DNA from: a virus
Lineage: Duplodnaviria > Heunggongvirae > Uroviricota > Caudoviricetes
Strand: one strand, 5' to 3'
DNA: 28,533 bases
Virus record (IMG/VR): IMGVR_UViG_2565956714_000005
In this document: one piece after another, positions 20,514 through 21,477 of the stretch
How the letters are laid out: each line of letters begins with the position of its first letter
Numbering within the stretch: position 1 is the first letter of the stretch
The notes under the pieces: model-generated
The model's database searches: none
Told to the model about the DNA's origin: nothing
The model's input: only the letters and a program-made list of their open reading frames with translations
Translations under genes and position numbers: made by a program

Positions 20514-21477
20514 TTATCCTCTGAAACCAGGCGGAATTTCTGTATCCGGTTCAGAAATATGATTAACACAACGCTGTACAGGTGAACGTCCCAGGCGGAT
20601 GACCAGTTCGTCCCATTTTTCGCGGAGCTTTGACGGGCTCATGATGTTTTTTACCCAGAATGGATCTCGCTGAACCCGACCAAACATTTCGCAAATTTGT
20701 CTGTGGCTTCTGCCATCCAGCATCCGCATTGTGCGCACGTCATTGGCCCAGGCAGTCCAGTTAGGCTCTTTTGGTCGCATGATCTCGCCATCATCACTGG
20801 CTGCCTGTTCGTAGAGACCCACGATCCGCCCCCAGATCCACTGCGCACACGCCAAATCCTCCCTGCTACCCCACTGGCGTTTTTTCGCACTAAACACAAC
20901 CGCGTCGGAGTTCCGGGTTAAAAAATCCTGTTCAGTCGTCTGCGGGTCCGGTTGCGAAGCTTCCGGACGAAAAGTGTTTTTATTCTCTGTAGTAATCTCT
21001 GTTGTATTCTCTGTAAGATCATCAGGCCATTTTGACCCGATGACATTGGGTCGTTTTGAACCAATGGAGCGTTTCATTTTGACCTCTTCCATCGTGTCAT
21101 TTTGACCTGATGGAGCGGCGCATTTTGAACCGATGGATTCGCTCAATTTGCCACCATCTAAAAGCTCGCTCCCATAGTTGATCGTGTAGAAATTGGTCAT
21201 ATCGCGCTTTGATTTATTGAGCTTTTCACAACGCAAAAGCCCCAGCGTTTTCAGACTTGCAAACGCGCGCTTTAACGTTGACTCTGACCAGAATGGGAAC
21301 TGTTCCAGCCATTGTTCCGTTGTGTTATAAATCCAGCGAACACCATCACATTCCATGCCGGAGTTGGTATCTCTCAACCAGTAGTGCAGTTGTTGCAAAA
21401 CAATGGCTTCGTTTAAGCCAATTTTCATTGCCAGCTGCGTGTTTATAACCAGTGGGCGTTCAGCAAAAAGAAGGCTC
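20514..21477 (-). CDS. Replication initiator: N-terminal phage replisome-organiser-like domain, C-terminal DnaT (primosomal protein I)-like domain; start uncertain (ATG 21477 or 21426; track TTG 21533)
   Basis: C-terminus ...GRSPVQRCVNHISEPDTEIPPGFRG parallels the end of E. coli DnaT (...[14 protein letters not shown]) as I recall it; internal repeated peptides (SIGSK x3, TENTTEITTENK) coincide with DNA iterons. Confidence 0.7.
20981..21016. repeat. Three 12-bp direct repeats (W-W-TCTCTGT-W-G) in an AT-rich stretch beside the iterons
   Basis: TCTCTGT at 20984, 20996 and 21008, period 12 bp. Confidence 0.5.
21028..21144. repeat. Five direct iterons of 23-24 bp, consensus CATTTTGA(C/A)C(Y)GATGG: candidate replication origin inside the initiator gene
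   Basis: CATTTTGACC/CGTTTTGAACC motif starts at 21028, 21052, 21075, 21098 and 21121. Confidence 0.65.

Follow-up and report, generated by a model that had tools for sequence, protein, structure and literature searches.

How can a phage load the replicative helicase at its own origin with an initiator but without a loader gene? This question is raised by a lambdoid prophage of the Qin/mEp460 type, whose module for immunity and replication was recognised by its open reading frames (ORFs) and by Pfam and PHROG matches in the 28,533-nucleotide stretch of viral DNA analysed here (IMG/VR record IMGVR_UViG_2565956714_000005, Caudoviricetes; hereafter the window), which spans the prophage from the head genes through to the integrase. 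The module contains a gene for a 321-residue replication initiator (20514..21479, minus strand), found in the ORF list and at the same coordinates in RefSeq (WP_000054512.1) and belonging to PHROG 391. A first-pass annotation had described origin repeats inside this gene, a protein end like that of the host primosomal protein DnaT and no loader gene behind it, and had proposed that the helicase is loaded by a PriA/DnaT-type restart route. We place slightly better than even confidence in another reading, in which the locus would be a lambda-style origin-in-gene replicon whose DnaT-type tail recruits the host DnaB-DnaC complex directly, with a single phage protein doing the initiator's job and no phage loader needed.

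A DnaT-type tail on an initiator without a loader gene

The initiator was assigned to PHROG 391, 'replication initiation O-like', with an E-value of 1.1e-91, and matched nothing in Pfam at E<0.1, Phg_2220_C included. Its coding sequence runs from the ATG at 21479-21477 to the stop codon at 20514-20516. An AlphaFold2 model divided the protein into four parts. The N-terminal winged-helix domain, which we take as origin-binding (aa 1-105; 21165..21479, minus strand), was modelled confidently and has a DDBH1-like fold. It is followed by a disordered inter-domain linker (aa 106-180; 20940..21164, minus strand), with predicted local distance difference test (pLDDT) values below 50 for residues 111-175, and the DNA coding for this linker is the carrier of the origin repeats. 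The helical C-terminal domain (aa 181-300; 20580..20939, minus strand), also confident in the model, contains the motifs PNWxxWANEIRLM and SPxKLREKWDEL and had no significant fold match in the PDB. The last part is a flexible DnaT-type C-terminal tail, VQRCVNHISEPDTEIPPGFRG (aa 301-321; 20517..20579, minus strand), with pLDDT of about 50-73. The initiator belongs to a large, modular family, with 12,343 relatives at E<1e-3 in a 50%-identity representative library, in which N- and C-domains are freely recombined.

The C-terminal end of the initiator, ISEPDTEIPPGFRG, matched that of E. coli DnaT, as read from K-12; the window protein ends QRCVNHISEPDTEIPPGFRG. Both proteins carry the pattern RD(V/I/L)NxxS(E/Q)PDxxIPPGFRG-COOH at the extreme C-terminus, and the earlier description of this end as DnaT-type was thereby borne out over about 20 residues. 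The match to DnaT covered only this length (NCBIfam E 0.006; PDB phmmer E 0.013). Against the NCBIfam DnaT model (PRK02854) the initiator scored 16.2 bits, compared with a cutoff of 201, and only residues 302-321 were aligned; a phmmer search with the true DnaT as query aligned the last 20-28 residues and nothing else. No Pfam match to PF17948, the three-helix bundle of DnaT, was found in the initiator, and a profile of its C-domain did not retrieve DnaT from the PDB. Of the DnaT C-domain that had been expected, the profile search thus recovered tail residues 302-321 but not the bundle, and the initiator is also without the N-terminal oligomerisation domain of DnaT and its acidic PriB-binding linker, the missing bundle (residues 84-153) being the domain that binds single-stranded DNA (ssDNA). 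Bundle and tail are separable, as one phage protein (P0169) joins a window-type N-domain to a genuine DnaT bundle and has no GFRG tail. The likeness to DnaT is best described as a portable tail of about 20 residues, not a domain, and this description is new here. The proposed PriA/DnaT restart route found no homology support, with the PriA- and PriB-contacting parts of DnaT absent, and what remains to it is the tail peptide. In RAST-style phage records (LR597641.1, LR595868.1, LR597642.1) the initiator is named 'Primosomal protein I', and PGAP calls it a 'hypothetical protein' (WP_000054512.1). The former label is apparently due to the 20-residue tail and is a misnomer.

The absence of a loader behind the initiator, as described at first, was upheld. 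The next gene, a DUF977/'LygF'/Ren-like gene of 140 aa (20051..20473, minus strand), matched DUF977 (8.7e-30) as its sole Pfam domain and PHROG 142, 'Ren-like exclusion protein' (3.6e-47); it contains no Walker motif and no Phage_lambda_P domain, and a search of NCBIfam returned nothing. The DUF977 gene occurs downstream in loader-containing and loader-less layouts alike. A divergent loader in this gene was ruled out, since it is Ren-like and lies downstream of real DnaC-like genes in sister modules. Six-frame phmmer searches were performed with DnaC, YdaV, a phage DnaC-like protein, two lambda-P-like proteins and DnaB as queries. No DnaC-, lambda-P- or DnaB-like ORF was detected in any frame of the window, and no loader or helicase in the complete 45.9-kb genome of phage mEp460. 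From these searches and the annotations, it was excluded that the element encodes a loader or helicase at some other place.

The loader-less module is widespread. The 1.9-kb module is 99.9% identical in E. coli ATCC 8739, W and many further strains, at least 80% of it is found in 1,585 of 5,426 complete E. coli genomes, and it is also present in the phage records PhiR42_1, HannyBb and mEp460. In the complete phage genomes, it is the sole replication module. Four diverged lineages of the initiator family, from Citrobacter, Salmonella and E. coli, are likewise without an adjacent loader, and their tails read IPEGFRG, IPAGFRG, IPDGWKGA and IPPGFRGSKR. These results suggest that a very common phage family uses a DnaT-type tail without a loader of its own, which is new here.

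Tail type and loader type among phage initiators

Since a search with an alignment of the C-domain gave only relatives of at least 91% identity, comparisons across lineages were made by back-translated tail and motif scans. A scan of viral sequences with the back-translated IPPGFRG-stop pattern, which misses IPxGFRG variants, provided 80 loci for analysis. Besides host DnaT, the tail was found on at least six unrelated scaffolds, namely the window family, DUF1376/YdaU proteins, a 358-aa family, an MRDYGKV family, proteins of the lambda-O architecture (HTH_36 plus Phg_2220_C) and DnaT-bundle proteins. A DnaC-like gene came next at 35 of the 80 loci, at +2 to +6, and DUF977 at +40 with no loader at 34; at 7 loci another non-loader gene followed, 4 had too little downstream sequence, and a lambda-P-like gene followed at none. 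The phage DnaC paralogues behind the tail are 48-50% identical to DnaC. What distinguishes the two layouts is a ydaV-ydaW pair between the initiator and DUF977, found in one and missing from the other, and the same initiator families were seen both with and without a phage DnaC.

As a control, 35 loci with a different tail, AEAWENTL, were analysed. A lambda-P-like gene came next at 31 of them, another non-loader gene at 3 and too little downstream sequence was available at 1; neither a DnaC-like gene nor the DUF977 layout without a loader was found. In these loci (L209-L243; also L005) the tail reads ...HWN(S/T)AEAWENTL, and the Phage_lambda_P-type loader gene overlaps the initiator gene at -19. 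The tail-bearing ORF was readable in 34 of the control loci, and each of these has the window-type C-domain. AEAWENTL appears to be another C-terminal motif, one dedicated to loaders of P type.

In the reciprocal test, ORFs upstream of phage DnaC-like genes were inspected, and a strict P-x-G-F-R-G-type tail was found in 86 of 112, with variants in about 10 more. The tail variants track loader clades: three clades of loaders (about 49-51% identity to DnaC) pair with the tail, as GF(R/T/S/K/V)G, in 92 of 92 loci, and other DnaC-like clades pair with tails PTTDF, FIxEDF and GAFDDDD. Behind a protein with the window-type C-domain and the tail (P0130) lies an IstB/DnaA-type AAA+ gene. A Phage_lambda_P gene comes next after P0169, which has the DnaT bundle and a different tail, and after the AEAWENTL-tailed relatives. 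Two viral contigs (L144, L153) encode HTH_36 plus Phg_2220_C proteins with a GFRG tail, followed by PerC-like or Dam genes and no P gene.

These data indicate that the tail, wherever phage initiators carry it, marks the DnaC pathway, a pattern that is new here. That it recurs on many unrelated scaffolds, portable behind variable spacers, that on one and the same C-domain it differs by loader type, and that viable loader-less phages use the exact form of the host DnaT tail all argue that the coupling between tail and loader is functional, beyond mosaic inheritance.

Host DnaT was surveyed in the same way. In K-12, dnaT is followed by dnaC at a distance of 2 nt, and in about 40 species dnaC lies at -4 to +2 behind host dnaT wherever the neighbour is intact. 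A species-dereplicated genome collection contained 51 genuine tails, mostly of host dnaT with dnaC behind it, and all those for which a record title was shown came from Enterobacterales. The tail is kept in 37 distinct host DnaT sequences of this collection; behind a variable spacer, it is about as conserved as the folded domains of DnaT, a figure inflated by the search pattern, which fixed seven residues. The scan was dominated by host dnaT and by chance matches outside Enterobacterales, and is a weak test of whether loader-less modules occur only in hosts with DnaC. Several phage and prophage proteins (L126, a 137-aa ORF with a DnaC-like gene at -1; L092, L325, L397 and L136) combine an initiator N-domain, of DUF1376 or replisome-organiser-like type, with the DnaT three-helix bundle and the GFRG tail, and some of these (L092, L126, L325) are then followed by a DnaC-like gene.

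Origin repeats and recruitment of the helicase

The DNA encoding the linker contains an array of six iteron units of 23-24 bp (21020..21159) with core starts on the plus strand at 21028, 21052, 21075, 21098, 21121 and 21144; on the coding strand the core is GGTCAAAATG. The five iterons reported by the first-pass annotation, starting at 21028, 21052, 21075, 21098 and 21121, are real. Exact CATTTTGAMC occurs in four copies in the whole 28.5-kb window, at 21028, 21075, 21098 and 21121, and a one-mismatch copy lies at 21052. The sixth, degenerate iteron, at 21144-21159, adds to these and is kept in relatives. With at most one mismatch, CATTTTGAMC had 14 matches, a number reached by 0 of 100 shuffles, and Tandem Repeats Finder together with a repeat search gave a 23-nt period over about 21020-21151. 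Dyad arms CATCrGG ... CCyGATG flank three of the units, and the right-hand GATGG arm is missing from copy 3.

Given the 23-24-nt period, the iteron core spans three reading frames (S-K, G-Q-N, V-K-M), and it is retained in relatives at 68-69% identity. Because it is read in three frames and yet kept at this identity, the iteron is most simply understood as a repeat at the DNA level. In relatives at 57% and 50% identity the core is altered, to GGGCAAAA and GGTCAAATTG respectively, and initiators with other N-domains bear other internal repeats; the sequence of the iteron co-varies with the type of N-domain. A natural initiator variant of 290 aa (P0018-P0021) lacks 31 aa (93 bp, four iteron units) relative to window aa 116-146, which indicates that family members differ in their number of iterons.

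Read along the gene, the iterons are followed by an A/T-rich 12-mer array (20966..21016), a putative DNA-unwinding element composed, on the coding strand, of three copies of TACAGAGAnTAc and a AATAAAAACAC run. Repeat searches confirmed the three 12-bp repeats noted previously, as ACAGAG repeats at 20981-21016 in a local GC minimum of 0.30 (20980-21019); the array as a whole is 69% A+T. TACAGAGAnTAc encodes TTE(N/I) repeats, and the array is near-invariant in DNA, third codon positions included, among initiators at only 50% identity. The array resembles an origin component held in common irrespective of initiator specificity, which could serve for unwinding or as a site for a host factor. The array was also seen in other loci (L004, about 5454-5490; L006, about 5442-5478; L245-L248), and in genes with a different N-domain (P0130), a different C-domain (P0169, with the DnaT bundle) or a different loader type, and a variant, ACAGATAAAGAT, is present three times in the 358-aa family. 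Both arrays lie inside the coding sequence, as had been stated, but its end, given as 21477, is at 21479, and 21477 is the third base of the ATG. No DnaA box was found at up to one mismatch in 19500-22800, and a DnaA-dependent origin was ruled out on this ground.

In the mechanism that we infer, the winged-helix N-domain would bind the six iterons in the DNA encoding its own disordered linker, and the adjoining 12-mer array would melt. The flexible tail would serve as a short docking peptide for host DnaB-DnaC, contacting either DnaC or DnaB in the complex, and DnaB-DnaC would then load DnaB onto the melted strands. The tail would in this way replace the initiator-to-loader contact that the C-terminus of lambda O makes with P. 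Several points weigh against such direct recruitment. The codons of the tail adjoin the loader gene, and mosaic inheritance alone would yield some association between the two; the sampled loci are, moreover, phylogenetically non-independent. Host factors other than DnaA may act at the origin. As for DnaT itself, its N-domain is favoured as the recruiter of DnaB/DnaC (Ducos et al. 2026), and residues 154-179, which include the tail, contribute to cooperative ssDNA binding, so that their removal lowers cooperativity (Liu et al. 2014).

This last result is what one would expect if the tail were an intramolecular or DNA-binding element that helps the initiator to oligomerise or to bind ssDNA cooperatively where the origin has melted, with host DnaB-DnaC recruited by the C-domain, another part of the protein or DnaA. 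The arginine and aromatic residues of the tail would suit such a role, and the conserved C-domain is a candidate for the other contacts. We nevertheless regard this explanation as rather unlikely, because it leaves unexplained both the exclusive pairing with DnaC-type loaders and the swap to AEAWENTL on the same C-domain where the loader is of P type; a tail that is portable between unrelated scaffolds, with variable spacers before it, behaves as short linear interaction motifs typically do, and DnaA boxes are absent. It is unlikely, too, that the tail connects the initiator with the restart primosome of the host, PriA-PriB-DnaT, by docking PriA or by replacing DnaT, with DnaB loaded at a D-loop or R-loop at the origin. 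DnaT does act with PriA and PriB, the last 20 or so residues of the initiator are of host DnaT type and a phage loader is lacking, all in keeping with this route. However, in the 2026 preprimosome structures (9ZBT/9ZBU; Ducos et al. 2026) the PriA-docked element was fitted with the 4OU7 unit, DnaT residues 84-153, and not with the tail, and PriB binds the acidic linker of DnaT; bundle, acidic linker and DnaT N-domain are all missing from the initiator. In addition, PriA is universal, so that a tail found with DnaC-type loaders or none, and never with lambda-P-type loaders, would be left unexplained, as would the phage's own DnaC paralogue directly downstream of about half of the tail-bearing phage initiators, as in dnaT-dnaC.

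A further explanation treats the loader-less layout as a deletion derivative of a YdaV-YdaW module, which would need a DnaC paralogue in trans from another prophage or would simply be defective, and the association of tail with loader as physical linkage only. The two layouts do differ by the ydaV-ydaW pair, pseudogenes and an insertion sequence remnant are present in this prophage copy, and a Rac-like ydaV is found in many E. coli strains. Yet the loader-less module is carried by the complete phage genomes of mEp460, HannyBb and PhiR42_1 and recurs in the four diverged lineages, and the 34 loader-less loci among the 80 sampled point to a stable and successful configuration; even in a deletion derivative, the partner would still be a DnaC-type loader. 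We therefore consider this explanation quite improbable. Direct recruitment of host DnaB-DnaC through the tail is the reading that we retain.

By the same reasoning, the tail may be the DnaB/DnaC contact of DnaT. The hand-off from DnaT to DnaB-DnaC is explicitly called unknown in the structural study (Ducos et al. 2026), and the pattern described here is a concrete candidate for this step in the E. coli restart primosome. Tentatively, and with somewhat less than even confidence, we propose that the last 20 or so residues of DnaT are the element that passes the PriA-PriB-DnaT preprimosome to DnaB-DnaC, and that the same peptide is a portable 'DnaC-system adaptor' of many unrelated phage initiators, engaging their own DnaC paralogue or, as in the window, that of the host. 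This proposal implies that host dnaT-dnaC arose by domestication of an initiator-loader cassette from a phage, as is also suggested, with the opposite direction as an alternative, by the phage proteins that unite an initiator N-domain, the bundle and the tail. In the literature searched, we found no paper mentioning the tail motif and nothing relevant on DUF977, YdaU/YdaV or a DnaT-DnaC contact. The pattern would explain how one phage protein suffices for replication in a family that is very common among E. coli phages and prophages, and it offers an annotation rule by which tail type predicts loader pathway. Such initiators, repeatedly misannotated under the two database labels given above, are thereby put right, and the mechanistic reading shifts from a restart route by way of PriA and DnaT to one in which the DnaT-type tail would recruit host DnaB-DnaC directly.

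Module context and relation to known systems

The immunity gene of the module is the dicA repressor (22279..22686, plus strand; Pfam HTH_3, 1.3e-16; RefSeq dicA). The cro-like dicC (21965..22195, minus strand; Pfam P22_Cro, 1.7e-11; RefSeq dicC) opens the rightward early operon, which reads on into the genes for replication. It is followed by a YdaT/CII-like gene of 173 aa (21460..21981, minus strand; Pfam YdaT_toxin, 4.5e-05; PHROG 163 'CII-like', 5.5e-40), which overlaps the start of the initiator gene by 20 nt (21460-21479). Public gene calls of 448 aa (P0001, P0002, P0004; 56 contigs; YdaT_toxin Pfam hit) join a YdaT-like N-terminus to the whole initiator, and these fusions could be a frameshift variant or an artefact of gene calling. 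Beyond DUF977 lies a short methyltransferase ORF of 118 aa (19698..20054, minus strand), which matches positions 52-165 of a 229-position PHROG model, and downstream of it are pseudogenes and a partial ISNCY transposase (about 16700-19450). These features and the short methyltransferase ORF indicate that, beyond its replication module, this copy of the prophage has decayed. In the leftward early region, an 835-aa 'exonuclease' ORF (24387-26894, plus strand) has a long acidic low-complexity middle section, and the product of its counterpart in L004 matches YdfE_N and YdfE_C. In K-12 Qin, dicC is followed by ydfX, ydfW and flxA, in agreement with the earlier statement that this prophage is without the replication module; K-12 Qin has lost it.

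Origin-in-gene replicons, as in lambda, are already known, as are DnaC-, P- and DnaB-type modules in E. coli prophages. The window resembles lambda ori/O/P in that the origin repeats lie within the initiator gene, between the N-terminal DNA-binding domain and the C-terminal recruitment part, with an A/T-rich stretch after the iterons in the direction of transcription, and in the gene order cro, cII-like gene, initiator, (loader) and ren-like gene. Some window iterons have dyad arms around a TCAAAA(T/C)G core, which we take to be reminiscent of lambda iterons. Relatives of the N-domain match HTH_36, and some relatives that share it carry Phg_2220_C, as lambda O does. In contrast to lambda, the C-domain of the window initiator is not Phg_2220_C, and there is no adjoining P-type loader gene, DUF977 being next.

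The layout of immunity and replication genes, with ydaS/cro, ydaT, initiator and, further on, DUF977, is that of the Rac YdaU-YdaV module and of P0130-type loci. YdaU also has the same tail and ends RQVNTVSLPDSAIPPGFRG. However, its N-domain is DUF1376, which is unrelated to that of the window initiator, and it is followed by its own DnaC paralogue YdaV, 6 nt on, and by YdaW/DUF1627, whereas the window has neither and DUF977 stands at +40.

A published precedent for O-like/DnaT chimeras is DopC, in which an O-like HTH N-terminus is fused to a 'DnaT C-ter motif', identified by HHpred against 2ru8_A (Brezellec et al. 2017, PMC5509034). DopC differs from the window initiator in being a domesticated chromosomal gene, paired with the P-like DopE, and no iterons were found in it (PMC5509034). 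Its similarity to DnaT was defined against 2ru8, which covers bundle and tail. The phage protein comparable to DopC is P0169, which has the DnaT bundle, no GFRG tail and a P-like gene next to it. The N-terminal winged-helix fold of DDBH1-like type is, for its part, a likeness to the RepA_N-family plasmid initiators and DnaD-type replisome organisers.

With DnaT, the window initiator shares the last 20 or so residues, RDVNxxSEPDxxIPPGFRG, at the extreme C-terminus behind a variable spacer, and its relatives share with dnaT-dnaC a DnaC-type gene that begins 2-6 nt past the tail codons. It differs from DnaT in having no DnaT N-domain, acidic linker or PF17948 bundle. The window initiator is probably a sequence-specific origin binder, not a restart factor.

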